A stretch of DNA of 64,000 bases, from the IMG/VR virus record IMGVR_UViG_3300042914_003763, positions 1 through 64,000 of that record, one strand, 5' to 3'. The first letter of the stretch is position 1; each line of letters begins with the position of its first letter. A program made the translations under genes and the position numbers. Under the pieces are notes generated by a model, which made no database searches, was not told where the DNA came from, and saw only the letters and a list, made by a program, of their open reading frames with translations. Shown here piece after piece: positions 399-64,000 of this stretch. The stretch is from a virus.

Positions 399-1103
399 AT
401 GGCATTCAATGAACAATATGAGTGGTTAAAGATAGAAAAAGAATATATCCAAGGAATTAAAACTCGTAACATTGAGACAGGTGAAATAACAATAACTTAC
501 CCGACACACCAAGATATATGTGACAAATACGGTATGCACCTAAAAACATTGCAGATACGTTCATCAAAAGAAAGATGGGGTATGCGCCGCAAACAGTATC
601 AAGCTAAACTCAAATACAAAAACAGCGATGTCAACTTTGAAGACATACTTGGTGAATCAGCTAAATTCGATGCTCTGATATTACAAGTAAACGAGAATGT
701 AGCATCACTTCTATTAGATAAACTTAAACCTTACCTCGAAATAATGAAAGCTAACGATGAAAATAATACTGAGTTAGCAGATAAATATTATGATGAAGAT
801 GGTAACTGTTCACTACCACCGTTAACAGTACGTGAACTTAAAGATATAGCGTTAACAGGTAAAGAGATAATTAATACAGTAAGAAATATACTTGGTGAAG
901 GTAACAACGTCAACTTACTAGATAACATCCGTGATCAAATACAACTTGATTACGATAACAAACGTAGACAACGTATCTTACCTAAATCACATATCAGACA
1001 ACAACTTAAACAAATGGATGAGATAGAAAAACAAGCTAGTGAACTTCAATTGAGAAAAGAAGAACTAAAAAAAATGTTAGATGAACGCAATAATAAACAA
1101 TAG
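399..1103 (+). CDS. Probable terminase small subunit
   Basis: N-terminal HTH-like segment (YPTHQDICDKYG...RSSKERWGMRR), helical C-terminus, upstream of TerL. Confidence 0.6.
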   Translation: MAFNEQYEWLKIEKEYIQGIKTRNIETGEITITYPTHQDICDKYGMHLKTLQIRSSKERWGMRRKQYQAKLKYKNSDVNFEDILGESAKFDALILQVNENVASLLLDKLKPYLEIMKANDENNTELADKYYDEDGNCSLPPLTVRELKDIALTGKEIINTVRNILGEGNNVNLLDNIRDQIQLDYDNKRRQRILPKSHIRQQLKQMDEIEKQASELQLRKEELKKMLDERNNKQ

Positions 1104-1202
1104 AATGAGAATAACAACGAATAAAACAAAGGCGCGACTTAACGTAATATCAAAGTGTATAAAATAACTCAGTAGTTAACATCGCGCCATCTCATTCATT
1201 AG

Positions 1203-1427
1203 CTAATTAATAAATTCAGCTTTGTAAATAACATAGCCTTCTATATCAGTTACTTCAACCATTTCACCTATTTGCGGTGGAGATGATAACAACCACGATC
1301 TAACTGAAATATACTTATCGTTAGGTAATTGAATTACAAACTTAGGTGGATGTTGTTTGTAGAATACTTCAATTGGTGTAGGAAACTCAACTTTGTATTC
1401 CTCATTATCGTAAATAAAGCTAACCAT
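1203..1427 (-). CDS. Hypothetical protein
   Basis: ORF with natural composition; hairpin GGCGCGA...TCGCGCC (1131-1188) between it and the convergent TerS gene. Confidence 0.55.
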   Translation of the reverse strand: MVSFIYDNEEYKVEFPTPIEVFYKQHPPKFVIQLPNDKYISVRSWLLSSPPQIGEMVEVTDIEGYVIYKAEFIN

Positions 1428-1802
1428 TTTTTCTACCCTTTCTTAATCGCAGCTAATATAATTCTATCATGTTTGATGAAGTTAAGAAATGTTGTGGGAC
1501 GTGGAATGTCCTGGTGTAACATAGGCTAGTGTTTGTATGGTATGTCTTATTATTATTATTGTTATTAATAATAACTTATACCAAACTAATTGTTATTTAA
1601 TACTCGTTATTAGGATTGACTAATAGGAGTTAGTGAGTTGTATCACCATCATGCCCGAAGTTAGTTGAAGTTTCTTGTTGTGTTATTACTATTATAACTA
1701 ACTAATCTAAATATGGTGATGAGATAGAAAAATAAATAAGGGTCGAAGTAAATATATAAGCGCATTATAGTAGTGACAAGTCTAAGCAGTTCTAGAGTAA
1801 GA

Positions 1803-1828
1803 TAAGCGGCATTATAGGTTGCCGCTTA
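1803..1828. terminator. Hairpin terminator
   Basis: TAAGCGGCA-ttataggt-TGCCGCTTA just downstream of minus-strand ORF 1839..2504. Confidence 0.6.
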
Positions 1829-1838
1829 ATGTAATTAA

Positions 1839-2504
1839 CTACATTATCAACTTACGTTTAACTAATCTACTACTCTTAGGTTTAACATCGCCTATTTTAG
1901 ATATTGCATCTAGTTCTAAATCTTTAAGTCTACTAATACCGACTACTCCAATCCCACCCATTAACTTACCTTTAGTTGTATTATCGTCCCAATAATCTGA
2001 CTTACTATCAATATCAGAATAACATTTTGCTCCATCAATAAAACCACGTTCATATTTTTCTTGTAACATTAAGCTAAATAAACATTCAATTTCATTATCA
2101 CAATCTAATTCTTGTTGTTGTAACTTATTTAAGTCGTTATCACCATTAACTAATGTCTCTAATTGAGTTAGGCGGCGATCTAGTTGTTTAATTAAACTAC
2201 CTTCATTACCTAAATTAAAGTATGGTTCTAGTTGTTCAACAAATTCATTAATATCATAAGTACCATAATGGTCTATTTGTACATCATTACGGTAGATAGT
2301 GAAGTTGCAACTTGTTCCTTTATACTTAGATGAATAAGTAACTACAACGCTAATAGCAACAGGATTAGTTTTAGTTGGTTTAGTTTCATAACTAGCAACA
2401 ATACTATCACTAGTTTCATTAAACTCTGTAAATGGTAAGTGAGCTACTGCTGCTTTAAATTGCGCCAACTTGGAATTACTACGACTAACTTTGTTACGAA
2501 TCAT
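1839..2504 (-). CDS. Hypothetical protein
   Basis: 221 aa ORF in a minus-strand run. Confidence 0.65.
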   Translation of the reverse strand: MIRNKVSRSNSKLAQFKAAVAHLPFTEFNETSDSIVASYETKPTKTNPVAISVVVTYSSKYKGTSCNFTIYRNDVQIDHYGTYDINEFVEQLEPYFNLGNEGSLIKQLDRRLTQLETLVNGDNDLNKLQQQELDCDNEIECLFSLMLQEKYERGFIDGAKCYSDIDSKSDYWDDNTTKGKLMGGIGVVGISRLKDLELDAISKIGDVKPKSSRLVKRKLIM

Positions 2505-2521
2505 TTTTCTACCTTATTGAA

Positions 2522-2830: not shown

Positions 2831-3369
2831 TATAATACCTCATTAACTAGTTGTAAGTCTAATGCTTGTTTCGCGCCGAAGAATATTTCTTCTTGCATCA
2901 TATCTTTAGTTATCTTAGTATGCTTACTGTAGATATCAACAAACTGTTGAAACAACATCTCACTGAATGTGCTGCTAACCCAAGTAGATGCTGATTGTAT
3001 TATGAAGTTAGTATTACTGGTACACTTTCTCTTGTCAGTACCAAGCAGTGGAATAATAGCAGTACTAGAAATAACTCCTGATGCAATAACAGTTATATCT
3101 AAACTACTATTTCTTAACACATCATACATCAACAAACCAGAAGTACAATGACCACCATTACTAGTTAAATACAACTTACAAGTCTTATCAACATAATCAC
3201 GTTTACTTTTTTCTATCTCATGTAATAAGTACATGAATCTGTAAGCACTTTTGTCATCAATGTCACCCGTGAAATACAAGTTACCATCTTGTATTTCTAC
3301 TATCGCAGTAGACGGTTCAAAGAAGTTGTTGTTAGTATCTGTTTGTGTTGTTGTCATATCGTAATTCAT
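2830..3369 (-). CDS. ClpP-like protein, probably catalytically degenerate
   Basis: LYFTGDID, LYLTSNGG, GLLMYD, GVISSTA, FFGAKQALDLQLVNEV match the ClpP fold; catalytic His position reads IIQS. Confidence 0.8.
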   Translation of the reverse strand: MNYDMTTTQTDTNNNFFEPSTAIVEIQDGNLYFTGDIDDKSAYRFMYLLHEIEKSKRDYVDKTCKLYLTSNGGHCTSGLLMYDVLRNSSLDITVIASGVISSTAIIPLLGTDKRKCTSNTNFIIQSASTWVSSTFSEMLFQQFVDIYSKHTKITKDMMQEEIFFGAKQALDLQLVNEVL

Positions 3370-3400: not shown

Positions 3401-5077
3401 ATGATCTACATGAGTAACAATCCACAAAGAGATGCAATAAGGAGAGAATTATTAGAGATAGAAAAAAAGTTAAACGATCTACAACTAAAACAACAAGATT
3501 ATGACTTACCCAAACTTGAATCACTTATTGAAGAACAAAGTTATATTGAAGCTTATGAAAGTAGTTATCAATTCCTACAACATAGCTGGTCTACATTTGA
3601 ACCATCAGATTTTCTACCTGCTAAACATCTTCATGCTATAAGTGAACATCTTGATGCTTGTTTAGCTGGTCAAATTAAAAAACTTATCATTAACTTACCA
3701 CCACGATTCAGTAAATCATCTTTAGTTAGTAAAGCATTTCCACCATACTGTTGGATTAAAGATCCTGGTAAACGTATTATCAACATAAGTTACTCCAAAA
3801 GATTAGCAGTAGGTGATTCACTTGTAAGCCGCAATATTATTGAAAGTGATTGGTATCAAAAAGGATTAAACACCGTATGGAAAGATATTAATAAATGGAA
3901 GTCAATATGGGAATTAAGTAAGGATCAGAACACTAAAGAAGATTACCGTAACACTTGGGATGGTAGACGTTTTGCTACTTCAACAGGTGGTACGTTAACG
4001 GGTGTAGGTGGTGACATCATATTAGTGGATGATCCACTTAATCCTGAAATGGCACACAGTAAGATTGAGCGTGATAATTGCAACGAATGGGCATCACAAA
4101 CATTACCATCACGACTTGATGATAAACAAAATGGTGTGATCATACTGATTCAACAAAGATTGCATGATCTTGATTTAACAGGTTATTTCCTTGAACAAGG
4201 AATATGGGAACATCTTTTTCTACCTAATGAATGGGAAGAATCACGGCGTTTTTGGACTAGTATTGGTTGGACTGATTGGCGTGTTAAGGAAAACGAATTA
4301 CTTGATCCAGTACGACACTCACAAGAAGTAACTGAACAACTTAAAGTTCAAATGGGAGAATATGGTTATGCGGGTCAGTATCAACAGAATCCTGTACCTC
4401 TAGGTGGTGGACTAATTAAACAAGAGTGGTGGAAGTATTGGTTTGTGTTACCTAACTACTTCGATAGTGCTTGTATTGCTATGGACTTATCTATTAAAGA
4501 TGGTAAGGATAATGATAATACAGCATTAGTTGCAATAGGAAAACGTGATAACAAGTTCTACATAATAGATGTTGTTTATGGAAAGATGGACATCGTTAAG
4601 CAAGTAGAAACTATAACTAACTTCTGTGATAAACATAACTGGATAAGAGCTAAGTTAATAGAAGACGCTGCTAATGGTAGTCCTGTATCTCGTATGTTAG
4701 ATAACAGAATAACAGGTCTTATTAAAGTAGCAAGTAAAGGTGTACCTAAAGATGTTCGTATTATGGCAATGATACCTGAGATTAATGCAGGTAATGTACT
4801 AATACCAGATCCTAAAATTCATAATTGGATAACACCATTATTAACAGAAGCTAATATGTTTCCTAAAGGTAAACATGACGATCTGTTAGATAGTATTCAG
4901 TATGGTTTAGACTACTTATTAGAACATAATACTTATTGTCGTATGCCAGTTGATATAATAACTGAAAGTGCTAATACAGTAAGTAGAAATCAAATAAGAG
5001 AACTTGTTGCATTAACAGATAGATTTAATAACCCTGTTAATGCAACAAGAGAATATATGAGAGGATTGTTTAATTAA
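3401..5077 (+). CDS. terL: Terminase large subunit
   Basis: Walker A INLPPRFSKS, GGTLTGVGGDIILVDDP, IQQRLHDLDL, GQYQQNP, IEDAANG, FPKGKHDDLLD. Confidence 0.95.
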   Translation: MIYMSNNPQRDAIRRELLEIEKKLNDLQLKQQDYDLPKLESLIEEQSYIEAYESSYQFLQHSWSTFEPSDFLPAKHLHAISEHLDACLAGQIKKLIINLPPRFSKSSLVSKAFPPYCWIKDPGKRIINISYSKRLAVGDSLVSRNIIESDWYQKGLNTVWKDINKWKSIWELSKDQNTKEDYRNTWDGRRFATSTGGTLTGVGGDIILVDDPLNPEMAHSKIERDNCNEWASQTLPSRLDDKQNGVIILIQQRLHDLDLTGYFLEQGIWEHLFLPNEWEESRRFWTSIGWTDWRVKENELLDPVRHSQEVTEQLKVQMGEYGYAGQYQQNPVPLGGGLIKQEWWKYWFVLPNYFDSACIAMDLSIKDGKDNDNTALVAIGKRDNKFYIIDVVYGKMDIVKQVETITNFCDKHNWIRAKLIEDAANGSPVSRMLDNRITGLIKVASKGVPKDVRIMAMIPEINAGNVLIPDPKIHNWITPLLTEANMFPKGKHDDLLDSIQYGLDYLLEHNTYCRMPVDIITESANTVSRNQIRELVALTDRFNNPVNATREYMRGLFN

Positions 5078-5089: not shown

Positions 5090-5407
5090 ATGTTTTTTCT
5101 ATCTGATTTATCAACTTATGCTAGATCACTTGGAGCTAAAGATAAAAAGAAAAGAATACGTAAACGTGGAGTATTATTAATTAGTAATAAACTAATGCCT
5201 GGATATAAACCACATCAAACTACATATATTGGTAACAGTGAAAACAATAATAAGATATTACGAGTTCAATATCAACATAAAGATGGAGAAGAAAACAATT
5301 TAGCTTTCTTAGGTAAACCAAGATATCTTAATGTTAAAGAACGAGTACAGTTACTTAAACAAGGTTTTCTTAAAGGTGACTATAAACAAGATGGAACTAC
5401 ACATTAA
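5090..5407 (+). CDS. MFFLSD-leader family basic protein
   Basis: Starts MFFLSDLSTY-ARSLGAKDKKKR. Confidence 0.75.
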   Translation: MFFLSDLSTYARSLGAKDKKKRIRKRGVLLISNKLMPGYKPHQTTYIGNSENNNKILRVQYQHKDGEENNLAFLGKPRYLNVKERVQLLKQGFLKGDYKQDGTTH

Positions 5408-5737: not shown

Positions 5738-5848
5738 CTAACGTTAGATAGAAAAAAGAAATGCGTCGTTGAACAAATACGGCGCATTACCAATTTTCTA
5801 TTTAGTTAAATAATAAAACACCCCGTTACAGAGGCGTTATTTTCATTA

Positions 5849-6184
5849 TTATGCTGCTACTTCATTTTCAACTTGATTGCTATAACGCAATTTAGATTGA
5901 TAAGCTTTAGCTGCACGGAACTTAGGTGATCTATGTGCAGGTACAGTTACACTACCTTCAGGACGTAGCTTGGTTAGTTCATTAACAATTACACGTTCCT
6001 TAGCATCAATAGCTAAGAACTTACCAAAGTCTTTAATAGTAACAGATTCACCTGCTGCTACAGTTTCAGCAATAATGTTGAAAACTGATGCAATAGCATA
6101 TTCCAACTTGTAAACTGGTAAAACCTTACCGTACTTAACCTCAAGATTCTTGTTAACTAAGGTAGCTAGTTGTTTAACGTTCAT
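5849..6184 (-). CDS. HU/IHF family DNA-binding protein
   Basis: GESVTIKDFGKF, AKER..N, VPAHRSPKFRAAK. Confidence 0.9.
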   Translation of the reverse strand: MNVKQLATLVNKNLEVKYGKVLPVYKLEYAIASVFNIIAETVAAGESVTIKDFGKFLAIDAKERVIVNELTKLRPEGSVTVPAHRSPKFRAAKAYQSKLRYSNQVENEVAA

Positions 6185-6421
6185 GATTCAATTTCCTTAT
6201 AGTGTTTGATTATTGTTTCACTATAAGCTAGTATAGTATAGTTATTAGATTAATGACAACTAAATTAAGATGAAATACAAAAAGAAATTACCAGATCATC
6301 TTAGACCTAGTAAGAGCAAGAAGCATAAGTCTGTTAAGTCAGGTAGAAAAAAATAAAGTTAAGTGATTACATCAAATTGAAGTTAGGTTTGTCATAGTGT
6401 TTATATCATTAGGTAACTAAG

Positions 6422-7366
6422 ATGGGTCACATTAAACTGTTTGAATACAACGCTAATCACATTGAATATGTACCAGGTCATGAGTTCTTTAATGGTACTC
6501 AGATGGCTAAATCTTGTGGGAAGGAAATTAAACATTGGTTAGAAAACTTACAAGCTGCCGAACTATCTTACGTATTAGCTAGAAAAAATGGAGAGGTCGT
6601 GATTCCGACTTCGCTTGAATGGCAAGGGTTTTCGACCACTCAGAAAATACGAGTAGCTAAACAAAATAAATACTGGAAGTATATTCGGATACATAAAGGG
6701 GGTGACACTCCATATCAAGGTACGTACCTTCATAAGCACATTGCAATTGCTTTTGCTCAATGGTGTAGTGCCGAATTTGCACTTCAAGTATCAGAATGGG
6801 TAGAACAATTAGCTACTCACGGTAAAGTAATTCTCAACCCAACCGAAGCTGCTGACTTTGAGAAGTTCAAACAACAACAACGTAGTAAACTTCAACTACC
6901 ATGTGAACCAGTAGATGAAATTGACTTACAGTTTCGTATATTAGATTGGGTTAACTTATGTGTCAATAACGCACGTTTCAATATCGAAGTTCCTATGTTG
7001 AATAGCAAAAACAAAGTGCGCCGTATTGACTTCATTAAGAACAACGGACGTAATGTAATAGCTTACGAACTGAAACTCAATAAGATAACACTTAATGATG
7101 TAACTGAAGCAATAGCTAATCGTGAATACTTTGAGTTGTTAAGCAATTACTTTAATCGTCCCATTACTTTTATTTTTCTATCTCCATTAGGTATCGCTGA
7201 TAATGCAACTACATTGTTACGAACTATGCCTAATATCAAGTTCCAAACTGTACATGAGTTATGTTATCAGTATTATCTTAAAGGTATTAACAACAAGTGG
7301 AAGAATAATGTTGTTAACTTAACTAACAATATGAACACTAATAGGTTTAGTTGCTTATTCAATTAG
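6422..7366 (+). CDS. KilA-N domain protein with C-terminal PD-(D/E)xK-like segment
   Basis: FNGTQMAK..GK...HWL and QGTYLH..IAIAFAQWCSAEFALQV (KilA-N); RRIDF...AYELK. Confidence 0.8.
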   Translation: MGHIKLFEYNANHIEYVPGHEFFNGTQMAKSCGKEIKHWLENLQAAELSYVLARKNGEVVIPTSLEWQGFSTTQKIRVAKQNKYWKYIRIHKGGDTPYQGTYLHKHIAIAFAQWCSAEFALQVSEWVEQLATHGKVILNPTEAADFEKFKQQQRSKLQLPCEPVDEIDLQFRILDWVNLCVNNARFNIEVPMLNSKNKVRRIDFIKNNGRNVIAYELKLNKITLNDVTEAIANREYFELLSNYFNRPITFIFLSPLGIADNATTLLRTMPNIKFQTVHELCYQYYLKGINNKWKNNVVNLTNNMNTNRFSCLFN

Positions 7367-7405
7367 TGGGGCATTAAAAGTCACCCCCTTTTTTCTATCT
7401 CTACA

Positions 7406-8656
7406 TTAAGTTATTAACTTCTTCAATCTTTGTACTTCATTACGAAGATATTGATTCTCTATTCTTAACCTATCTAACTCACTTATTTCATTCTTAACAT
7501 CTAACATCTTATCGAATGCTTTGTTATGTGTTGTATGATCCATCCACTTCTGATAAGTCTTAGTATGTTCTTCAACACTATGTCCCATCCACTTAGCTGC
7601 TATATCAACAGCTATTCCTAATTCACTAGCTCTAATAGCATAACGATGTCGTAAGTTATAAGCAGGTTGATTGAAACCATATCTTTGAAATGCTTGATTA
7701 AGTATGCTAATAATGTTTTCAAGTTTAGTTGATGCAGTAACAAATTGCATTACATCTAACAACTCAAACTTATCTACCCATTCTGGATGAATAGGATAAA
7801 CAATACGTTCACCTGTTTTAGTATCATCAGAAATATGTAATACATTACGGTGATTACTTTCAGAAGTAAACTTACTGTAACAATCTTCTGTTAGTAAGAA
7901 TAACTCACTAGGACGTAAACCATAAGTAGCTATCATTCCGAATGTCCATGCTACTTGTCTAGGCATACCATTGAAAGTAGCTTCAATATAACCATCAGTA
8001 GGTAATGTGCGTTTCTTAGGTTGATATTTACATCTGAATTGTTTCCAATCAATATCATCTTTGATTCCAACATGATCAGCTAAACATTTAATAACACGAA
8101 TTAGATCAGCACGTGGTTTGCTGTTAGGTTGTGTTGAATCAATCCAGTTACTAATATTTGATTCAGTTAACAGTTGATCATCAGGTATCTTTAAGAATAT
8201 ATCGGTGTAACTTTTTTCCCAAGTTGATAATGTTTTACGAGACTTCTCTCTTGTTTTCCAATATGATTCGGTAAATGCCTCCTTCACTTCAAACATAGTT
8301 TGGGGTTTAAGTTGTTCAACTTTTTTCTTCTGATAATCAGGTAGTAATAACCACCATTCTTTACCACCATATTTCAAATAGGAATCTACTTCGCGGCATT
8401 TGTTTTCAGCATCAATTACCCCTTGAATAGTGGTTTCATTGAATGGTATCCAATATCTTTTTGTAGTGTTTGGGTCTTCAATTACAGGTAATGTGCCACG
8501 TAAGTACAGACGTTTATTTTTTCTATCTATCAATAACTTTGCTTTACCACTACTGTTGAGACGATTGTTGGCATCAGTAATAGCTGTATCAATTTGTACA
8601 AGAAAATTATCTTGCTTACTACGTGACTCTTCACCAACATACTTCCTGTTAACCAT
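7406..8656 (-). CDS. int: Tyrosine integrase of cyanobacterial XisA/XisC type
   Basis: LYLRGTLP, ATYGLRPSE, KTGER, YNLRHRYA, MGHS..EH..TY give the catalytic R-K-H-R-H-Y residues. Confidence 0.92.
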   Translation of the reverse strand: MVNRKYVGEESRSKQDNFLVQIDTAITDANNRLNSSGKAKLLIDRKNKRLYLRGTLPVIEDPNTTKRYWIPFNETTIQGVIDAENKCREVDSYLKYGGKEWWLLLPDYQKKKVEQLKPQTMFEVKEAFTESYWKTREKSRKTLSTWEKSYTDIFLKIPDDQLLTESNISNWIDSTQPNSKPRADLIRVIKCLADHVGIKDDIDWKQFRCKYQPKKRTLPTDGYIEATFNGMPRQVAWTFGMIATYGLRPSELFLLTEDCYSKFTSESNHRNVLHISDDTKTGERIVYPIHPEWVDKFELLDVMQFVTASTKLENIISILNQAFQRYGFNQPAYNLRHRYAIRASELGIAVDIAAKWMGHSVEEHTKTYQKWMDHTTHNKAFDKMLDVKNEISELDRLRIENQYLRNEVQRLKKLIT

Positions 8657-8802
8657 AAGTTTTCTACAATTTCTTCTACACAGTTGTCAAATGTTTACTT
8701 ATCAATCAAGTTATCTGCTAAATATCAAGTGATAAGTTGAAAATGTTTTCCGAGATAGAAAAACACTATTGCAACGATTGTAGAAGAAATGTTTATTTTA
8801 GT

Positions 8803-43303: not shown

Positions 43304-43320
43304 GAGATAGAAAAAAGGAT

Positions 43321-43360: not shown

Positions 43361-43430
43361 CTATCTATATTTAATTACTTAACCCTTATCTCTTCAACTT
43401 TCCATTCATTAAACAGGAATAAACCTAATA

Positions 43431-43694: not shown

Positions 43695-43742
43695 TCTTAT
43701 TAGTCACAAAATCCATTAGTTCATTCACTTTTTTCTACCTTT

Positions 43743-56083: not shown

Positions 56084-57439
56084 GTGAATAACTTATTTCT
56101 AACTTCCAAGATTACAGCATTAACAACAGGAGTAGTACAAACTTTAAGCAATCCTAATAAACATACAATAAAAGAATATAAGGAAACATTACGTAATCCT
56201 TGGTTACGTGCTTGCATTAGAATGAAAGGTCAACGTGCTGCTAACTCAATAGGAGAATACCAATTTAAGAATAAAGAGATAGAAAAATGGGTTAAAAATA
56301 ACATTAACAACGTACATGGTAACTTACGTGAATTAGTTGGTGTGTTAGCTAGTGGTGCTAGTGCATTTGGACATATGGCAGTTGAAACAGCTAAGGAACG
56401 TAAGTACGGTAATAAGTTCCGTAAAATTGAATGGCACTTAGGTGGATTTAACGTATTAGATCCTGAACGAGTACATTATGCAGGTAACTATGGCGCAATT
56501 AGTTATGTTAAATATCAAGATGCTGTTAGAGAATTATATATACCTTATGAAAAATGTCTTCATATTACTAACTCAGGAACATTAGACTTTAATAATGGTA
56601 GTGTTTATGGCGATCCAGATTGTGAAGTAGCTTTTCCTTACGTTAAGTTGTATAACATTATAATGTCTGAAATGGCTATTAGTGCTAAGACATTAGCTAC
56701 TGGTATTATTGTTGGATTAGCAGATGGAGATAATACAGTTTACTTGTATGACAATAACGGTGATCCGTTACGTGATAGTAATAACAACTTAATCAAACGT
56801 AATGCAGTACAACATCTAGCTGATCAACTAAAACAACTAGAAAATAGAAGTCATATTGTTACGGATAAGAAAAATAGTGTTGTACCATTACAAATACCAG
56901 CAGGTGAACAGTTCTGGACAATTAGCGAGAATATGTTGAAACGTAATATATTTGCTAGTTGCGGTGTTCCAGTAATGGTATTTGATGAAGGTAGTAGTGC
57001 AATAGCTACTGCAACATTAAGTGTGAAACAAGAAACAACTCTTGATACCACTATTGCTGATATAGTGGCGCAAATTAAGGATCAATTGATAGAAAAAGTT
57101 ATACGTCCGTTGATTGTTGCTAATTTTGGTAAGCAATCCGACTATGGCGATTTCGTAGTTCAAGCAAGCGCAGATCCAGCACAAGACAGCTTAATAACCA
57201 GCAACTTGATGACAGCATTCAGTCTTGGATTGTTACAATCAAGTGATATTGATGCAGTTAACGCATTACGTGAAAGGTTGAAACTACCACCTGTAACACC
57301 CGAACAACAGCAACAACAAGCACAAATGACAGCTATGTTACAACAATTGCAACAACCTGCTGCACCTGAAGCTGACCCTAATAGTCAACCTCAAGAACAA
57401 CAGGATGAAAGTTATGATCAGCAATATCTAGCAGCGTAA
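56084..57439 (+). CDS. Probable portal protein (Mu gp29/DUF935-like)
   Basis: LRACIRMK, FGHMAVE, VYGDP, LIEKVIRPLIVANFG, LRERLKLP; 451 aa; no other portal candidate in the window. Confidence 0.75.
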   Translation: MNNLFLTSKITALTTGVVQTLSNPNKHTIKEYKETLRNPWLRACIRMKGQRAANSIGEYQFKNKEIEKWVKNNINNVHGNLRELVGVLASGASAFGHMAVETAKERKYGNKFRKIEWHLGGFNVLDPERVHYAGNYGAISYVKYQDAVRELYIPYEKCLHITNSGTLDFNNGSVYGDPDCEVAFPYVKLYNIIMSEMAISAKTLATGIIVGLADGDNTVYLYDNNGDPLRDSNNNLIKRNAVQHLADQLKQLENRSHIVTDKKNSVVPLQIPAGEQFWTISENMLKRNIFASCGVPVMVFDEGSSAIATATLSVKQETTLDTTIADIVAQIKDQLIEKVIRPLIVANFGKQSDYGDFVVQASADPAQDSLITSNLMTAFSLGLLQSSDIDAVNALRERLKLPPVTPEQQQQQAQMTAMLQQLQQPAAPEADPNSQPQEQQDESYDQQYLAA

Positions 57440-57555: not shown

Positions 57556-58974
57556 TTAATCTTCATCTGTGTATTCTATTTCGACATTTTCTTCAGAATT
57601 ATGTTCTTGTAACTCGATGTAACTTGTTACACTATTATTTTCCAAATTAAATTCAATTACTTCAAGTAAGTCTTTTTTGTGATAGATAAAGCAACCATGA
57701 TTCTCTGTGTAAATAATAATCCACTCATCATCAACTTCACTAACAAACGATCTGACCCAACAACCTCTACTACCATCAACGTGCATCCAATGTACTTGAT
57801 TAGTAAAGTCATCATAAGTTAAATTACTTTCCTTATGCCTTGCAAAATCCGTAACGTCTAAATAACTCATCATAAATACTTTTTCACTCCTAACTTACCT
57901 TCTTTTCCATGACCATTACTAACGTTATATAACTGATAAACCTTATTATCATTACGATAAATACCACAACGTTCGTATTTAATTAACAAATCATCTAACG
58001 CAACAAATAGATAACTTACATCACCTTCATACAATGTGTATTCTTGGTTGAATACGTCATCTAAAACTTCACTAACAGTTGTTACAATCATAGTTTTTAT
58101 AATAGATAGAAAAATAATGGTGCGGCGTTCAATCTAATTCGCCGCTTACTTGTGAATTACTTAACTACTTTAATGCTGTTATCTTTCAACAACAACATTA
58201 CTTCATCTAACTTACTTTTTTCTACCTCTATTAAGATAGTTGTAGTTGTTTGTTTTTTCTTCCATAACTTAAACGCTGATTCAAACTCAATTCTAAAATT
58301 AACAGCATCATTAACAAAGTAACCTAACTCTGTTAATTCGTATTCTTCATCGTCATTAAGTACCCATATATTAGGATACTTATCACAATCCCATAATATA
58401 TCTGCTGGTAATTCAAATGTATCGTCATTCCAAAACTGTTTAATTTCACTACCTAATACTTTCATAACTAATCTCCTAATTTAATTAATGTATCTCTAAT
58501 CGTAATTAGTCTTCTTGTGGTGTCGGTACAAATTTATAATTTAACTTCAATAAATTTTGCATAGTAGCATAACCAGGACTACCATTATGTTCTTTGTAAT
58601 CGGGTATTGCTAATGAATGTTCGTTATATCTAACACCATTAGCACCTGTTTCAGTAACATCAACATACAATATTAAGTTACCACTACTTTCACGTCTCCA
58701 TTGCATTAATTTACTGTGGGACATAATACACTCCTACAATTACGTTATTGTTATACATATTGTCATAAGTTAAGTTAGTAACTTGTAGTTGTAATTCTTG
58801 ATTAGCAATTGAAAGATTAGTTGCTAACTTAACAAAGTGTTTAGCTAGATTAGCTAATTCTTCCTTACTACACTTACCACTGTCAATATGATCAAGTAAC
58901 TTAACTTCATTAATCTTTGTTTGTAACTTTGACTTAGCTAAGATATCATCCATGATTAGTAACTCCTTGTTCAA
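57556..58974 (-). CDS. Run of five small hypothetical genes (57556-57873, 57870-58091, 58157-58465, 58506-58724, 58711-58974)
   Basis: Tightly packed co-oriented ORFs, several overlapping, some with GGAG RBS. Confidence 0.6.
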
Positions 58975-59425
58975 TTAGATAACACATTCCTATAGCAGCA
59001 CTATCACTACTATGATCAGATAGAAAAATAGACTTATCAACTTTAAAATAATTAGCAGCGTTACTAGCTACTAATTCTTTATCAGCTTTACCATCTCCTG
59101 TTACTTGTTTCTTTATATGAGTAGCACTATATGAAATTATAGTAGCACCAACTTTAGCAGCATTAAGTTTAATAACACCTAATGCTTGACTAATGTTAGT
59201 ACCATTAACACCTCTACCAATGAAACAAGGTTCTTCATACACAAATACTTCAGGTTTGTACTTATTAAATAACTCGCCGTACTTGTTATCTATATTAAGT
59301 AACTTATCCTGAAGTAATTTGTGTTTACTAACTACATCACCTACTTCTAATATAGTTAAGGTTGTTGTGTCAATAACACAGTAACTATTATTTATAACAC
59401 CACAATCAGTTCCGATTAATATCAT
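58946..59425 (-). CDS. ruvC: RuvC-like Holliday junction resolvase
   Basis: ILIGTDCG, FVYEE, IKKQVTGDGKADK, DHSSDSAAIG. Confidence 0.88.
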   Translation of the reverse strand: MILIGTDCGVINNSYCVIDTTTLTILEVGDVVSKHKLLQDKLLNIDNKYGELFNKYKPEVFVYEEPCFIGRGVNGTNISQALGVIKLNAAKVGATIISYSATHIKKQVTGDGKADKELVASNAANYFKVDKSIFLSDHSSDSAAIGMCYLIEQGVTNHG

Positions 59426-59576: not shown

Positions 59577-60071
59577 TTATTTTCTCCTCACATAGTCAAC
59601 ATAACTGTAACCATCATTCATTACTGTTTTTTCTATCTCCCATTCGCTATTCACGAATCGAAAATAAGTATCAGCATCGGGAAAATCTTGAAAAATATGA
59701 GTAATATACATCTTCTCCACATGAGGTAGAAAAATATTGTATATCTGTGAACCACCAATTACAAACACATCTTTCTTGAAACTTTTAGCAAGTTGTAATG
59801 CAGTAGCAGGATTATTAACATAGTACAACTTACCAAAGTCATCAGTGCTAACATCGTAGTTCAAAGCTGATGATGTGAGTACGATATTGATACGATTAGC
59901 GAGTCTCTGACCACCCAAATCGCCATCAAAAGTTCTTTTACCTACAATGACAACGGTATCAGTTGTAAGCTGCTTGAATCGTCTCTTATCGTCTCTATTG
60001 TTCCACACCAAACCACCATTAGCACCAAGTTCACCGTTATGTCCAATTGCTGCTATTAAGTTAATCGTCAT
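59577..60071 (-). CDS. folA: Dihydrofolate reductase
   Basis: LIAAIG..G.LG, LVW...D..RFK..T, VGKRTF, L.NR.NIVLT, VIGGSQIY, ADTYF. Confidence 0.93.
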   Translation of the reverse strand: MTINLIAAIGHNGELGANGGLVWNNRDDKRRFKQLTTDTVVIVGKRTFDGDLGGQRLANRINIVLTSSALNYDVSTDDFGKLYYVNNPATALQLAKSFKKDVFVIGGSQIYNIFLPHVEKMYITHIFQDFPDADTYFRFVNSEWEIEKTVMNDGYSYVDYVRRK

Positions 60072-60345
60072 TTTCTTTTTCTACCTCATACATATCAAAT
60101 AAACTTTTTACGTAAAGTAAACCACGTAAATAACCTTCAGTTTCTACAGCATTAATTGTTAGATGATGATCGTTCTTTAGTTCATCAATTAAACGTCTAG
60201 TGTTTTCAATTTCACAATATAATTCTCCATTAACATCTTCGTAGATATCACCTTGTCTAATTAGACTCGCTGTTTTATTTCTAACTAATTGATCAACTTT
60301 CTTATTGATATAAGATTCTAATTCTTGTAGTAAGTTATCTTTCAT
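60061..60345 (-). CDS. Hypothetical protein
   Basis: ORF overlapping the DHFR start. Confidence 0.6.
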   Translation of the reverse strand: MKDNLLQELESYINKKVDQLVRNKTASLIRQGDIYEDVNGELYCEIENTRRLIDELKNDHHLTINAVETEGYLRGLLYVKSLFDMYEVEKENDD

Positions 60346-60578: not shown

Positions 60579-60851
60579 TTACCAAGTTAATCCTAAGTTA
60601 TCAGCATTACCTCTACAAGTAAAGTTAGGATTATTATGACAAATCCAACTCTTACTAACTTGTAGTTGTAGTTCTGGTGATTGTTGTTTTAAAGCTTCAC
60701 TACATTCAATATAAAGTTTACAAGTTACTGCACAATCTGAACATGACTTTGGTAGTAGTGGTAGTTCTCTATTATCATAATTTAACATCCTCATAAAGTA
60801 TTCTTCATTGTATTCAGTTTTTGGAGTGATATTACATTTAATTTTTTTCAT
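60579..60851 (-). CDS. Cys-rich hypothetical protein
   Basis: CSDC, WICH, TCRG; possible metal binding. Confidence 0.55.
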   Translation of the reverse strand: MKKIKCNITPKTEYNEEYFMRMLNYDNRELPLLPKSCSDCAVTCKLYIECSEALKQQSPELQLQVSKSWICHNNPNFTCRGNADNLGLTW

Positions 60852-60855
60852 TTTT

Positions 60856-61632
60856 CTATCTCTTAATTCTATAAACAATCATTTCTTTAACAGGTGTTCT
60901 ATCACCATTACAACTAATACTTCGTGGTGCAATAACATCACTAACTATGAAATCAGCATCACTATATAACTTAACTAACGTATCATCATAACTATTACTA
61001 GCTATAACAGTACAGTTAAGTTGGGATAACCAATTAACTAATCGTAGTTGATCTTCCCATTTGAAGTCTTGTTGTGCATATTTAGTGAATACATTATAGT
61101 AAGGTGGATCTACATATACAAAATCATCATCATTAATCTCAAGTTGTTCAAAATCACTACAAGAGAAACAATAGGTAGAAAAAAGATTAGTGTAGTTAGT
61201 GAAGTCTTGTAGCAACTTAACTGTTTTGTATTTACCGTATGGTACATTAAATTCTCCTTTGTTATTGAATCTACAAAGACCATTGAAACAATGTTTGTTT
61301 AGATAGTAAAACAATAACGCCGCATCTTTAGTTAAGTAGTTATTTTCTTCTATCCAAATATTAAACTGATTACGCCAAGTGTAATAGTAACTTTCATCAT
61401 TAACAAACAAATCTAAGTTAATATCTAGTTGTTGTTGTATTTGTTTATAGAGGTTAATTAAGTGAGGATTAACGTCATTAAGTAATGCAACTTCTGGTTC
61501 AATATGTAATGTAACAGCACTAGCACCACAAAACGGTTCAACTAATCGTTTATAGCTACCAGCATAATAATGTTCTGCTATATGATTAGCAAGGTGTCCT
61601 TTTGATCCACACCATTTTAACAAGGGTTTCAT
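60856..61632 (-). CDS. dam: DNA adenine methyltransferase (Dam family)
   Basis: LKWCGSK, VEPFCG, LNDVN, FNGLCRFN..G.FNVPYG, VYVDPPY. Confidence 0.92.
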   Translation of the reverse strand: MKPLLKWCGSKGHLANHIAEHYYAGSYKRLVEPFCGASAVTLHIEPEVALLNDVNPHLINLYKQIQQQLDINLDLFVNDESYYYTWRNQFNIWIEENNYLTKDAALLFYYLNKHCFNGLCRFNNKGEFNVPYGKYKTVKLLQDFTNYTNLFSTYCFSCSDFEQLEINDDDFVYVDPPYYNVFTKYAQQDFKWEDQLRLVNWLSQLNCTVIASNSYDDTLVKLYSDADFIVSDVIAPRSISCNGDRTPVKEMIVYRIKR

Positions 61633-61634
61633 AA

Positions 61635-61787
61635 CTACTCTCCATAAGGAAATAACACTAACAATGGTAAGCTACAGATGGTCGCAATAGTAAAGCTGTA
61701 ATAATCACCAGCTAACCATCTGTCACATAAACCAAATGCAAAACCACCAGATAGAAAAATAAATGCTGCGAGTTTAATGTAAGTCAT
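61635..61787 (-). CDS. Small two-helix membrane protein, 50 aa, not in the ORF track
   Basis: MTYIKLAAFIFLSGGFAFGL...FTIATICSLPLLVLFPYGE. Confidence 0.45.
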   Translation of the reverse strand: MTYIKLAAFIFLSGGFAFGLCDRWLAGDYYSFTIATICSLPLLVLFPYGE

Positions 61788-62115
61788 CTGTAAATACCCG
61801 ATCAAATAATTTATTTATGTTGTGTAAGTCAAATGATCCTTCATTTGTTATATTGAAACCTTCATACTTAACATAAGTTAAATCCATAAAAAGATTTATA
61901 CCTACATCAATAGCTAAATTATATTCAACATCTATAACAGGTTCTTGCCAACAATGAATAATTATACTATCAACTTCTTTAATATCATGTTTATCTAAAT
62001 AACTAAACAAACATTCAACGATATTACGTAACTTCTGTATTGTTTCATTATCATAACTAGTCGTTAGTTCTTGTATTCTGTTGTTACAATACCGTAATGC
62101 TTCACTTGTCAACAT
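61774..62115 (-). CDS. Hypothetical protein
   Basis: ORF with GGAG RBS. Confidence 0.6.
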   Translation of the reverse strand: MLTSEALRYCNNRIQELTTSYDNETIQKLRNIVECLFSYLDKHDIKEVDSIIIHCWQEPVIDVEYNLAIDVGINLFMDLTYVKYEGFNITNEGSFDLHNINKLFDRVFTDDLH

Positions 62116-62126
62116 AACTATAACTC

Positions 62127-62885
62127 CTAATCTGGTATTCGTTTATTGCGCCGCACAAAGTCTAAAGCCGTTAGTAATCTATTATATGTTTTTTCTACCT
62201 CTTTCAGTCTATCTTCTGATATTTCATCGTTGTGTTCACTTGCAAACTGTATTTGTATAACACCATAATAATTGTTCTTTTCACCATTAACAGGAATAAG
62301 TCTAGTGTAAACAGCTTCTAATCCTATGCTATTAAGATATTGCTTGCAACCATTATCAACGTTAACATCTGAAATAGCATTACGAGTAAACTTATCTGAT
62401 TGGTAAGTTAATAACTCATCTTCTATTCCAGTTACATCAATATTCTTATAGCGTTTACGTAATGATGTTATACCAGTTTTAAGTGACTCATATGCCAGAC
62501 TTAACTTAGTGAAATGAAAACTCCCAACACTAGTACCATTATGAAACAATCCTACTACAACACGATCTGCATCAGTTAACGCTCTTAACTCAATTAATAT
62601 TTGTTCTATTTTCTTCTTCTGTTGAACCGAATCCTTATTGATGTAAGCTATTATGTTACCAGTTGTTGTTTTAAGTAATCTTATTTTACTAATATGATTT
62701 TGTATCACTACTACACTAGCTAGTAGTAACAATAATAAGTTAATAAAACTAATAGTACCTGTTTCTTTATATATTTTAATAGTATCTGTAATTAATTCTA
62801 TTTCTACATTAGTATTAGGTTCTTTAGTTGTACTTGTTGTTTGAGCAATGAACATAAAATATGATGTACGATATTGAATTACCAT
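62127..62885 (-). CDS. TM helix plus GAF-like domain protein, possible holin
   Basis: FINLLLLLLASVVVI; ADRVVVGLFHNG; YGVIQIQF. Confidence 0.55.
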   Translation of the reverse strand: MVIQYRTSYFMFIAQTTSTTKEPNTNVEIELITDTIKIYKETGTISFINLLLLLLASVVVIQNHISKIRLLKTTTGNIIAYINKDSVQQKKKIEQILIELRALTDADRVVVGLFHNGTSVGSFHFTKLSLAYESLKTGITSLRKRYKNIDVTGIEDELLTYQSDKFTRNAISDVNVDNGCKQYLNSIGLEAVYTRLIPVNGEKNNYYGVIQIQFASEHNDEISEDRLKEVEKTYNRLLTALDFVRRNKRIPD

Positions 62886-62927
62886 ACATCATATTTTAAC
62901 TGATTACCGTAATACTACTACAATAGT

Positions 62928-63416
62928 TTATACATCGTTATTGTGTTCATCTTTCGTCTCATTACTTAACTTAATAAGAGAAGATAACACTGAATTAAAT
63001 ATTTCACGTTTCTCTTCTATTTGACCACCAGCGATAACTTCGTGTAAATCAAAGTCCTTCGATTCAATACCGAACTCTTTTACATAACTATTCACGTAAT
63101 TAGCCCGATTTAAGTTGGAATATAACCATTTCAACAAATCAAAGGTATAAATATTTGATTCAATTTCAATATCTAAATCCTTTAATTCATTGATACTACT
63201 ATCAGCAATCAAACTAAGTACATCAACAATATAATTATACACATAGTCATCAGGCATCATGTCACCATGAGCTACACGACATAATTCTTGTAATTTAGGA
63301 TCGGCATCATCTTTTCGCTTGTAGGTAGAAAAATTTTCAGTTCGTTCTAACGGTTCAAACTGATCAACATAACGTGCTGCTAATTCTCGTACTGCATCCA
63401 CATTGTAATCTGACAT
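62928..63416 (-). CDS. Acidic Ocr-like/antirestriction-like protein
   Basis: AHGDMMPDD.VY, NIYTFDLLKWL, IAGGQ.EE..EI; acidic and helical. Confidence 0.45.
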   Translation of the reverse strand: MSDYNVDAVRELAARYVDQFEPLERTENFSTYKRKDDADPKLQELCRVAHGDMMPDDYVYNYIVDVLSLIADSSINELKDLDIEIESNIYTFDLLKWLYSNLNRANYVNSYVKEFGIESKDFDLHEVIAGGQIEEKREIFNSVLSSLIKLSNETKDEHNNDV

Positions 63417-63485
63417 AATTCCTCTTTTTCTATCTCTAATAGCCACCAACAACAGTAATTGGAAACTTAATGAACGGATGACTAA

Positions 63486-64000
63486 TTACCAATTTAAAGC
63501 ACTACTTACAATTGGTAATTCTGTAATGAACAATTGTTTAACTTCATTAGCTAAATCGTAATGTTCTTTCTGTGTGCCAGATTCAGGGTTAGCACGAACA
63601 TTTAAATAATGAATCCAACTCCTGATTGTACCATTCATATACATCTTAGTTGTACTACTCATTGGTAATATACGTCTCGCTGATTCTTTAGCAATACCTT
63701 TATCTAATGCTTCATTATAGGTAGAAAAAAGTAATTGGTTTATGTAATTAACATTATCATCAAACCACTGTTTTGTTTCTACCTCTAAATCATCAATACT
63801 ATTCTGACGGTTTTTCACATCTTGACGACGTGGAATAGTTGGTTCAACTGTGAGAACTTTGGCGTATCGTTGTGAAAACTCTTGAAACGAAAAAGATTTA
63901 TGTCTAATTATTTGTGCTGATATATCTCTCGATGTAGTTAATTCAACACACATATTACCCATTTCAAATATAGACCAGTGTTGATGCTCAATACAATATC
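63486..64000 (-). CDS. thyX: FAD-dependent thymidylate synthase (5' end outside the window)
   Basis: [52 protein letters not shown]. Confidence 0.95.

Follow-up and report, generated by a model that had tools for sequence, protein, structure and literature searches.

An 11-letter DNA word recurring about once per kilobase in a temperate phage lineage: possibly a private, strand-specific self-mark

Why should one short, asymmetric word recur about once per kilobase, on either strand, within genes and between them, throughout the genome of a phage? The question is raised by the window analyzed here, which comprises the first 64 kb (positions 1 to 64,000) of the single-contig virus record IMGVR_UViG_3300042914_003763 in IMG/VR (117,113 bp; genome G000), and in which the word AGRTAGAAAAA (AG[A/G]TAGAAAAA) has 69 exact copies spanning positions 430 to 63729. 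The ends of the record overlap by exactly 127 bp, and the assembly is therefore circular and the genome complete; its GC content is 32%, and the presence of genes for a large terminase, a major head protein, and capsid and tail proteins identifies it as that of a tailed phage. As described below, AGRTAGAAAAA is almost certainly a word selected at the level of the DNA.

The copies in the window are divided between the strands as 34+/35−. A first-pass annotation, made by reading the letters without database searches, had counted some 65–70 copies in about equal numbers on the two strands and had estimated that less than one would be expected in 64 kb; both statements agree with the present counts, since dinucleotide-preserving shuffles of the window yield 0.24 ± 0.49 copies (largest 2) and none of 100 shuffles reaches 69. 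The whole genome contains 112 copies (57+/55−), or 0.96 per kb. In an unbiased analysis of k-mer enrichment the AGRTAGAAAAA family ranks first for k = 9 to 12, and at k = 8 the first rank is taken by its sub-word TAGAAAAA. The word is sharp: at every position but the third, single-letter variants have 0–5 copies apiece, and the third letter is, genome-wide, A in 64 cases, G in 48, T in 12 and C in 3. Its flanks are nearly information-free, with a weak G at −1 and a weak A at +11 and +13, and the word is thus self-contained and not a piece of a longer repeat; membership in such a repeat or in a miniature inverted-repeat transposable element was ruled out for the same reason. As read from the sequence, the motif strand consists of ten purines and one T, and the A-tract end lies beside a TA step.

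The copies in the window are listed below as exact matches, with their context in a crude set of 164 open reading frames (ORFs) by which 90% of the genome is coding; "no ORF" means not fully inside one.

430..440, plus, AGATAGAAAAA: in ORF 399-1103+, sense
1021..1031, plus, AGATAGAAAAA: in ORF 399-1103+, sense
1722..1732, plus, AGATAGAAAAA: no ORF
2504..2514, minus, AGGTAGAAAAA: abuts the ATG of ORF 1839-2504-, at the position of a ribosome-binding site
3208..3218, minus, AGATAGAAAAA: in ORF 2830-3369-, sense
3456..3466, plus, AGATAGAAAAA: in large terminase ORF 3401-5077+, sense
4215..4225, minus, AGGTAGAAAAA: in ORF 3401-5077+, antisense
5094..5104, minus, AGATAGAAAAA: in ORF 5090-5407+, antisense; reverse complement is the MFFLSD leader
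5746..5756, plus, AGATAGAAAAA: no ORF
6341..6351, plus, AGGTAGAAAAA: no ORF
7173..7183, minus, AGATAGAAAAA: in ORF 6422-7366+, antisense; word also at orthologous Scytonema position
7390..7400, minus, AGATAGAAAAA: no ORF
8518..8528, minus, AGATAGAAAAA: in ORF 7406-8656-, sense
8753..8763, plus, AGATAGAAAAA: no ORF
9126..9136, plus, AGGTAGAAAAA: in ORF 8894-12460+, sense
9240..9250, minus, AGGTAGAAAAA: in ORF 8894-12460+, antisense
10897..10907, plus, AGATAGAAAAA: in ORF 8894-12460+, sense
12467..12477, minus, AGATAGAAAAA: in ORF 12463-14013+, antisense; MFFLSD leader
13899..13909, plus, AGATAGAAAAA: in ORF 12463-14013+, sense
14028..14038, minus, AGATAGAAAAA: MFFLSD-type start, short frame
14395..14405, plus, AGATAGAAAAA: in ORF 14159-14428+, sense
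14694..14704, minus, AGATAGAAAAA: in ORF 14690-16264+, antisense; MFFLSD leader
15861..15871, minus, AGATAGAAAAA: in ORF 14690-16264+, antisense; each relative's own dialect at orthologous position
16529..16539, minus, AGATAGAAAAA: in ORF 16267-17472+, antisense
18917..18927, minus, AGATAGAAAAA: in ORF 18153-19001-, sense
19026..19036, plus, AGATAGAAAAA: in ORF 19017-19256-, antisense
21221..21231, minus, AGATAGAAAAA: in ORF 21217-21498+, antisense; MFFLSD leader
23373..23383, plus, AGATAGAAAAA: no ORF
24662..24672, plus, AGGTAGAAAAA: no ORF
24740..24750, minus, AGATAGAAAAA: MFFLSD leader, start at 24736
26501..26511, minus, AGATAGAAAAA: no ORF
29923..29933, plus, AGATAGAAAAA: in ORF 29619-30032+, sense
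30039..30049, minus, AGATAGAAAAA: in ORF 30035-30271+, antisense; MFFLSD leader
30079..30089, plus, AGGTAGAAAAA: in ORF 30035-30271+, sense
30100..30110, plus, AGATAGAAAAA: in ORF 30035-30271+, sense
31355..31365, minus, AGATAGAAAAA: in ORF 31351-31875+, antisense; MFFLSN leader
32298..32308, plus, AGATAGAAAAA: in ORF 32251-32598+, sense
33096..33106, minus, AGGTAGAAAAA: no ORF
34297..34307, minus, AGGTAGAAAAA: in ORF 33933-34394+, antisense
34572..34582, plus, AGATAGAAAAA: in ORF 34424-34639+, sense
37846..37856, plus, AGATAGAAAAA: in ORF 34641-40913+, sense
40174..40184, plus, AGATAGAAAAA: in ORF 34641-40913+, sense; identical word at orthologous Scytonema position
40940..40950, minus, AGATAGAAAAA: in ORF 40933-41670+, antisense
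43305..43315, plus, AGATAGAAAAA: no ORF
43356..43366, minus, AGATAGAAAAA: no ORF
43730..43740, minus, AGGTAGAAAAA: no ORF
45000..45010, plus, AGATAGAAAAA: in ORF 44516-45025+, sense
46856..46866, plus, AGATAGAAAAA: in ORF 45943-48762+, sense
47094..47104, minus, AGGTAGAAAAA: in ORF 45943-48762+, antisense
48835..48845, plus, AGGTAGAAAAA: in ORF 48759-48935+, sense
48989..48999, minus, AGGTAGAAAAA: in ORF 48986-49300-, sense
49433..49443, minus, AGATAGAAAAA: in ORF 49406-49993-, sense
51239..51249, minus, AGATAGAAAAA: in ORF 50056-53313+, antisense; G005 dialect at orthologous position
52248..52258, minus, AGGTAGAAAAA: in ORF 50056-53313+, antisense
54549..54559, plus, AGGTAGAAAAA: in ORF 54346-55998+, sense; G005 dialect at orthologous position
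56277..56287, plus, AGATAGAAAAA: in ORF 56084-57439+, sense; word at orthologous Scytonema position
58104..58114, plus, AGATAGAAAAA: 12 nt before the start codon (ATG) of ORF 57870-58091-, to which it is antisense
58217..58227, minus, AGGTAGAAAAA: in ORF 58157-58465-, sense
59018..59028, plus, AGATAGAAAAA: in ORF 58946-59425-, antisense
59628..59638, minus, AGATAGAAAAA: in ORF 59577-60071-, sense
59724..59734, plus, AGGTAGAAAAA: in ORF 59577-60071-, antisense; word at orthologous Scytonema position
60076..60086, minus, AGGTAGAAAAA: 4 nt before the start codon (ATG) of ORF 59577-60071-, at the position of a ribosome-binding site
60851..60861, minus, AGATAGAAAAA: in ORF 60579-60878-, sense
61173..61183, plus, AGGTAGAAAAA: in ORF 60856-61632-, antisense
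61749..61759, plus, AGATAGAAAAA: in ORF 61635-61805-, antisense
62190..62200, minus, AGGTAGAAAAA: in ORF 62127-62885-, sense
63323..63333, plus, AGGTAGAAAAA: in ORF 62928-63452-, antisense
63425..63435, minus, AGATAGAAAAA: in ORF 62928-63452-, sense
63719..63729, plus, AGGTAGAAAAA: in ORF 63486-64115-, antisense

Genome-wide, 83 of the 112 copies are coding (46 sense, 37 antisense) and fall into five frame/orientation classes, while the 29 that are not fully inside an ORF occupy the ~10% of the genome that is non-coding, about 2.5 times the share of that DNA. When synonymous codons are shuffled within genes, preserving protein and codon usage, 6.4 ± 2.2 copies remain compared with the 83 observed (300 shuffles, maximum 12); the enrichment thus survives the codon-preserving null that the first-pass annotation had named as a possible refutation. 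The word is realized in 83 of the 97 peptide contexts that permit it by synonymous choice, and residue-shuffled proteins offer just 15.7 ± 3.9 such contexts, indicating that the amino-acid sequences are also bent towards the word. An artefact of codons, dinucleotides or peptides is ruled out by the dinucleotide, codon and residue nulls. The earlier argument for selection on DNA, which had been drawn from the variety of peptides encoded, is upheld by both the synonymous shuffle and the context test, and the peptides themselves had been read correctly (EIEK/EVEK/KVEK/QVEK, DRKK/GRKK, FFLS/IFLS/FFLP, FST). Copy density in ORFs is 0.54 per kb for those lacking homologues in the relatives described below, 1.09 for those with a homologue in one relative, and 0.86 for those with homologues in both. 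Several antisense intergenic copies lie directly 3' of a short self-complementary stretch that, read by eye, may be a terminator stem with the T-run of the word as its U-tract; intergenic copies in the sense orientation lie 0–4 nt before an ATG, where a ribosome-binding site would be.

Relatives were found via terminase homologues, and the identities given are those of the large terminase (TerL). Further homologues at 90, 72, 57, 51 and 50% (P0001, P0002, P0005, P0010 and P0012) lie outside the comparison of words. IMG/VR fragments nearly identical to G000 contain its word too, and just as densely (in G001, 55 copies in 50 kb, with 0 for the reversed control). A contig of Scytonema sp. NUACC26 (NZ_BAACAP010000247.1, 155,752 bp; TerL 66%) carries, from ~24 kb to its end, the form (T)G[G/A]TAGAAAAA; TAGAAAAA occurs there 164 times and GGTAGAAAAA 59 times. 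At 53%, a clade to which G005 (111,623 bp) belongs uses GTAAGAAAA, which is equally sharp and has 87 copies in G005, where the word of G000 has 0; and L154 (47%) has AGTAAGAAAA at ~0.5 per kb. These dialects have xG..AGAAAA in common and vary at positions 3–4. Among enriched k-mers of relatives at TerL identities of 35% or less (L105, L127, L157) nothing comparable appears, and the others in that range of identity contain no comparably frequent 10-mer. The metagenome contig L152 (49%) was not counted as a dialect: it shows a weak excess of AAGCAAAAC (8 in 18 kb vs 0.46 expected, for the 18 of its 92 kb that were read) and is the sole relative above 45% in the comparison that has no clear dialect.

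A reciprocal control separates the words of G000 and G005 cleanly. Of 54 contexts that permit its own word G005 realizes 44, and of 13 that permit the word of G000 it realizes 1; G000 realizes 0 of 27 contexts for the word of G005. At orthologous codons (~45% amino-acid identity) the Scytonema word is exact at 7 of 41 alignable G000 sites, and the G005 word occurs in the same register at 3 of 36 (AGATAGAAAAA vs AGTAAGAAAAA); it is this occurrence of each lineage's own word in one register at orthologous codons that makes the dialects homologous, and from it we infer that a phage-encoded reader co-evolving with the word probably exists.

Individual sites can be followed among the strains of the G005 clade, which are up to 14.6% divergent. 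In L070, at 14.6% background divergence, 8 of 8 sites are kept with no difference in 72 motif columns (10.5 expected), and 60 of 434 positions differ in the 30-bp flanks. All 9 of 9 sites are kept in L153 (4.4 expected) and likewise in L066 (5.2 expected), and across the 11 strains of the clade that were compared motif columns show 0 differences. Individual sites are thus under purifying selection in this clade, and the conservation ends at the word edges; conservation in related phages had been suggested as a check in the first-pass annotation. The strains closest to G000 are too alike to be informative on this point. Comparison with G001 (~1% divergent) gives 51 common sites and 4 found only in G001, and in four lake runs ~99.8% identical to G000 none of the 40 differences listed, out of 44, falls in the 22 covered copies (~0.5 expected).

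Could the word instead belong to the host? Ordinary genes of the chromosome occupy the initial 19 kb of the Scytonema contig (KdpD, AnmK, Ser/Thr kinases, PP2C, an ABC transporter and a response regulator), and this flank has host-like GC and density of HIP1 (the highly iterated palindrome of cyanobacteria), 0 copies of GGTAGAAAAA, and no G[AG]TAGAAAAA before 24,171. At ~23.6 kb lies an integrase 65% identical to that of G000. This combination of chromosomal flank and integrase at the junction shows that the Scytonema relative is a prophage inserted in the chromosome, and heterocystous cyanobacteria are therefore among the hosts of this phage family. The prophage is at least ~130 kb long, with its left junction at ~22–24 kb beside the integrase; no tRNA was found at the junction, and the contig ends inside the element. 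HIP1 has been taken up by the prophage (55 copies in 134 kb). In the whole assembly of 11.3 Mb there are 153 copies of GGTAGAAAAA vs 63 of the reversed control, 59 of the 153 being on the prophage contig and 94 in the remaining ~11 Mb. Small word clusters occur on contigs C230, C231, C134 and C159 of the same assembly and may be further prophage pieces or a second element.

Across 401 cyanobacterial genomes the word of G000 reaches at most 86 copies in 4.8 Mb, or 0.018 per kb, vs 0.96 in the phage. The word is thus a repeat neither of the Scytonema chromosome nor of any of these genomes, so that the second refutation named in the first-pass annotation, a host repeat, does not apply in this sample, and for the genomes searched the word is private to the phage; a host repeat or host Chi was accordingly ruled out in this sample. 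In one genome, G319:C2, AGGTAGAAAAA has 86 copies and the reversed control 16; the copies are scattered, one per ~60 kb, and form no phage-like cluster, although there is a tandem array (521586-522082, period 54). They probably belong to a repeat of that host which has the same letters but no relation to the phage word. Like HIP1, the word is sharp and highly iterated in a cyanobacterial setting, and HIP1 itself is present in both the Scytonema flank and the prophage. HIP1, however, is a palindromic octamer (GCGATCGC) of host genomes with 0 copies in G000 and G005, and the word is asymmetric, so that the earlier statement that the two are distinct holds. Short palindromes in general are strongly avoided in G000, with 2 GGCC, 2 CGATCG and 0 GCGATCGC in 117 kb (in G005 the counts are 4, 0 and 0), which fits evasion of cyanobacterial restriction systems; GATC, with 340 copies, is not avoided.

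The copies are more evenly spaced than simulated sites placed uniformly. In G000 the gaps have a coefficient of variation (CV) of 0.79 vs 0.99 (P 0.003), and none exceeds 3.4 kb, whereas the simulated median for the largest gap is 5.3 kb; for G005 the CV of 0.69 is lower than in any simulation. Strand labels alternate beyond expectation, as measured by strand runs (z = +2.1 in G000 and +3.4 in G005). Pairs closer than 1 kb on the same strand are depleted (32 vs 52 expected in G000, 12 vs 33 in G005), while those on opposite strands are at expectation (57 vs 53 and 34 vs 34); the closest opposite-strand copies lie 30–51 bp apart start to start, with 19–40 bp between words. The two orientations thus behave as independent, self-avoiding series of about one copy per 2 kb each (mean spacing ~2.1 kb per strand in G000). 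That only same-strand pairs are depleted disfavors an orientation-blind organizer and favors a polar reader, and we consider strand-specific reading of the word rather likely. Both transcription blocks are balanced (20+/22− in the structural block, whose genes are on the plus strand, and 30+/26− in the early block, with genes on the minus strand), which makes it unlikely that the directional process is transcription; together with the ratio of 46 sense to 37 antisense this bears out the first-pass view that the word is not oriented relative to transcription. The companion view that it is not oriented relative to strand is correct for the overall balance of 57+/55−, but not at short range, where same-strand copies avoid each other below ~1 kb.

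In the explanation that we prefer, the word would be kept by selection on the DNA itself and read by a phage-encoded, sequence-specific factor whose specificity co-evolves with it; reading would be strand-specific, each orientation forming an evenly spaced series; and the word would act as a self-mark read in a directional transaction, either way along a circularly permuted or recombining chromosome. Because ends and breaks in a permuted, recombining genome face either way, both orientations would be needed, at short regular intervals, and a length of 11 letters would make the word nearly absent from a host genome of several megabases, where about one copy per 50 kb or fewer would provide the contrast. 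In one version the word would be a Chi-like switch; in another it would be a bound polar roadblock signaling to a processive helicase-nuclease that the DNA is that of the phage and not of the host. That the word is a self-mark private to the phage, read during a directional DNA transaction by a phage factor evolving together with it, is a serious possibility that stops short of being probable. We advance more tentatively the full proposal that a temperate cyanophage lineage has a private polar word and a co-evolving reader, a phage-encoded counterpart of Chi or of the DNA uptake sequence (DUS), with which a DNA-tracking enzyme moving in either direction separates phage from host DNA; control of a nuclease or of recombination specifically is doubtful. 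Of the functions suggested in the first-pass annotation, a phage-protein site or a self-recognition mark, the phage-private mark is strengthened by the dialects, and an orientation-blind DNA organizer is weakened by the same-strand avoidance.

Two known systems resemble this proposal. The uptake sequences of competent bacteria, DUS in Neisseriaceae and the uptake signal sequence (USS) in Pasteurellaceae, form lineage dialects, and DUS are 9–12 nt long at about 1 per kb. Closest in pattern to the word are their properties as given in the available part of PMC1939737: they are non-palindromic, lie on both strands with no orientation bias, and are enriched in non-coding DNA; the word is likewise divided 57+/55−, with 29 of 112 copies in ~10% non-coding DNA, it has dialects, and some of its copies double as what may be terminator parts. 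DUS and USS, however, reside in chromosomes of competent bacteria and are read by uptake machinery, whereas the carrier here is a phage and the word is not a repeat in the host-type genomes searched; a phage genome has no uptake step, packaging being the nearest analogue. Chi is a polar signal for a helicase-nuclease that enters at a DNA end, and the same-strand avoidance in G000, with opposite strands independent, fits a polar reader. In Chi-rich phages, according to the accessible portion of PMC12315714, the 8-mer of the host accumulates at one per 1.86 kb (LLS) or 1.90 kb (P1), 20 of 23 LLS sites have one orientation, and there is no own recombination module. The likeness is that the most frequent word of the phage occurs about once per 1–2 kb and that its accumulation is read as selected; the differences are that the word of G000 has 11 letters, is private to the phage, is balanced in orientation and not over-represented in the host-type genomes sampled, and that G000 does possess recombination genes, encoding Sak4-like (AAA_24), SSB, exonuclease and RuvC-like proteins. 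A literature search, which did not reach supplementary tables, found no description of the word or of a comparable system in cyanophages or other phages.

Several points weigh against the self-mark proposal. The HU/IHF, KilA-N and XRE genes of G000 listed below are no more than candidate readers, and no RecBCD/AddAB-type nuclease-helicase was recognized among ~70 proteins scanned; we know of no Chi as long as 11 nt. The spacing nulls ignore coding constraints, and same-strand avoidance could partly be redundancy under any selection for site density. The near-identical strains of G000 show no signal of site conservation, and comparison with G001 gives 13 differences in 605 motif columns vs 6.9 expected, mostly at the ends of alignment blocks. 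A small, steady sense excess in three genomes (46:37, 44:30 and 44:31) also counts against the proposal. The Scytonema prophage realizes only 73 of 132 contexts and is unevenly spaced (CV 1.28), with a 14-kb gap that has more HIP1; its uneven, less saturated sites may tentatively be ascribed to decay or remodeling during long residence. Finally, molecular drive without cellular function is a possible origin of the word.

Genes to which a role in reading the word or in the life cycle might be assigned, and other landmarks of the window, are the following:

3401..5077, plus: large terminase (TerL) gene (phrog_38), the query for relatives
5849..6184, minus: HU/IHF-family DNA-binding protein gene (PF00216, E 3.9e-11; phrog_379), a candidate reader only
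6422..7366, plus: KilA-N domain protein gene (PF04383, E 8.8e-18), conserved in both relatives; a candidate reader only
7406..8656, minus: integrase gene (phrog_1), with the 65% identical homologue at the Scytonema prophage–host junction
19017..19256, minus: XRE-type helix-turn-helix gene, 79 aa (PF01381, E 3e-9; phrog_3), conserved in both relatives; a candidate repressor or reader only
23449-24657: major head protein (gene call)
34641-40913, plus: ORF of 2090 aa, tape measure by size and position only (ORF call)
45579-45651, plus: tRNA-Asp (GTC), the sole tRNA found in the window

TerL is of the T4-like headful type (PF17289), and the integrase gene marks G000 as temperate. The HU/IHF-family protein has homologues that are 41% (Scytonema element) and 37% (G005) identical. 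Other proteins that G000 shares with the Scytonema prophage and G005 are a Bro-N protein, the primase-like protein, the helicase, the exonuclease, and the products of five ORFs of no assigned function (5444-5737, 44516-45025, 76276-76887, 89119-89469 and 94414-95004). The XRE gene and an ORF of 282 aa (together 18153-19256, minus) lie antisense within the plus-strand structural block, and both are kept in two relatives; that ORF (18153-19001), in which a hydrophobic stretch and GxSxG were noted by eye and which has no Pfam or PHROG match, was dropped as a reader. Early and replication genes fill the minus-strand arm from 57 kb to 117 kb, and include those for DHFR, a Dam-class methyltransferase, dUTPase and RNR; for DNA polymerase, a primase-like protein, helicase, SSB and exonuclease; and for Sak4-like (AAA_24), RuvC-like, RecJ-like DHH and ThiF/E1 proteins.

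Other readers of the word can be envisaged, and two of these alternatives, both unlikely, survive best. In the first, an immunity repressor would bind the 112 sites as stoperator-like operators and silence the 117-kb prophage, with no orientation rule. Stoperators have a lineage-specific consensus and co-evolve with their repressor. They are asymmetric 13-mers at more than 20 sites per genome, read in cluster A mycobacteriophages by a monomeric two-domain immunity repressor of the L5 gp71 type, and they lie in promoters and short intergenic spaces following the direction of transcription, reversal abolishing function (PMC9283540, from the part of that article available). The word resembles them in its asymmetry, similar length and many copies across a temperate phage genome; a monomeric reader is plausible for an asymmetric site, the phage is temperate and a relative is integrated in the Scytonema chromosome, all three lineages have kept an XRE-type gene, whose 79-aa product is the only candidate repressor recognized in G000, and several intergenic copies are just upstream of early-gene starts. 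The rules of location and orientation do not carry over, however: the word is about four times more numerous and is mostly inside genes (83 of 112) in either orientation, and the long-resident Scytonema prophage, where the strongest selection would be expected, has the least saturated and least even sites.

In the second, a phage nickase or primase would act on the word-bearing strand about every 2 kb, the scale of Okazaki fragments. The polar, self-avoiding series with a mean of ~2.1 kb per strand would suit such nick or priming sites, as would the motif strand of ten purines and one T and the presence in G000 of a primase-like protein, helicase, DNA polymerase and SSB. Phages of the T5 and LUZ24/tf types have nicks at conserved motifs, and the likeness is that a conserved short motif marks one strand of phage DNA; theirs, however, number from a handful to about a dozen and are reported on one strand, compared with 112 on both strands here. 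Theta or rolling-circle replication needs one strand per arm, whereas the strands are balanced everywhere; opposite copies 30–51 bp apart would risk double-strand breaks if both were nicked; HNH, GIY-YIG and other nickase families were unmatched in profile scans of ~70 proteins; and the known primases read 3–5 nt.

Architectural sites, at which the conserved HU/IHF-family protein or another organizer would bend the DNA, are improbable. The location of the HU/IHF gene beside the terminase region, its conservation in three lineages, the A-tract end next to a TA step and the even spread of copies are as would be expected, but an orientation-blind bender would make any close pair redundant and only same-strand pairs are depleted; moreover, HU/IHF sites are degenerate and the word tolerates almost no mismatch. 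A packaging "uptake" word, such that terminase or small terminase prefers word-bearing DNA with a drive like that proposed for DUS, is more improbable still: the headful terminase and circular assembly are compatible with it, but no small terminase was recognized in G000, one-way packaging along a concatemer needs just one orientation, and phages with as many as a hundred pac-like sites are not known to us. It is very unlikely that the word is an ops-like element (operon polarity suppressor) whose non-template strand is recognized by a NusG/RfaH-like factor of the phage as it moves with RNA polymerase. The ops element of RfaH contains GGTAG, like the G form of the word; the small sense excess in three genomes points the same way, and ORF 113131-114213- has a weak NusG N-terminal match (E 3.6e-4), which at 21.4 bits is under the curated Pfam threshold of 22.2. 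Nearly half of the copies, however, are on the template strand, and tblastn finds no NusG-like ORF in G005, which has its own dialect.

That there is no reader, the word being a by-product of a repeat or Chi site of the host, of a recurring peptide or leader, of codon usage or of biased mutation, is scarcely credible and largely refuted. In its favor are the nine copies by which gene starts spell the MFFLS leader, the richness of the genome in AT and in lysine, and the existence of phages that accumulate host Chi (PMC12315714, in its accessible portion). Against it, codon- and residue-preserving nulls fail 5- to 13-fold, five frame/orientation classes and non-coding copies are involved, the word is not repeated in the sampled cyanobacterial genomes or the Scytonema host, G000 has its own recombination genes, unlike Chi-rich phages, and conservation stops at the word edges.

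The leader is a subject in itself. On the strand opposite the word, nine of the 112 copies encode a start reading MFFL(S/P). In the head/tail region, eight ORFs at least 78 aa long start with MFFLS(D/N) (at 5090, 12463, 14690, 21217, 24736, 30035, 31351 and 32251, all plus); seven of the eight starts are written by the reverse complement of the word, and that at 32251 uses a TTA Leu codon, without the word. M[FYI]FLSD starts number five in the Scytonema prophage, only two of which contain the full word by reading of their DNA, and none in G005 by this pattern. Accounting for just 9 of 112 copies, the leader peptide was rejected as the cause of the word; from its sequence, MFFLS(D/N) looks like a shared N-terminal tag and is perhaps a capsid-targeting signal.

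Near-identical copies of G000 are found in public runs labelled lake-water or freshwater metagenomes, and at least half of the sampled words are present in the contigs of 10 of 21 public runs found. Contigs of this kind from the lake runs, compared with G000, showed no positions at which molecules start or stop. In 4 of 4 lake-metagenome runs 490 bp containing ORF 72407-72697 are missing (L144:8114-8605 corresponds to genome 72233-72724), and the joint falls between two direct word copies sharing AGGTAGAAAAA(A)TAGTA; small early genes can thus be lost or gained at joints provided by word copies. The breakpoints that separate G000 from G001, compared with the site list, do not coincide with word copies. 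A single-protein scan of viral contigs found no close relatives of G000, and megablast against a phage collection gave no match; tblastn with the head-region ORF 19356-20618 found two Pseudanabaena phages and no others. The cultured Pseudanabaena phage Pam2 (L160, 1-50000), a distant relative, has a weaker and less sharp word, (G)CAGAAAAA(G/A), with 23 CAGAAAAA in 50 kb (15+/8−) and 15 GCAGAAAAA vs 1.35 expected; a core AGAAAAA is common to this word and the dialects. No such motif is mentioned in the available part of the paper on Pam1-5.

If a phage-encoded reader exists, the word would represent a system of self-recognition that takes up ~1% of the genome of a virus, under selection strong enough to alter proteins, word-compatible contexts being six times commoner than chance. 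With its dialects and polar spacing, the word brings the reader within reach of experiment: two natural dialects, AGRTAGAAAAA and GTAAGAAAA, offer a clean swap experiment, for which the prophage of Scytonema sp. NUACC26 and, more weakly, the cultured phage Pam2 are possible laboratory entry points. The word would also supply a sequence signature by which metagenomic fragments could be assigned to this phage lineage, and its reading would bear on how phage and host DNA are kept apart in degradation, recombination, replication and packaging.

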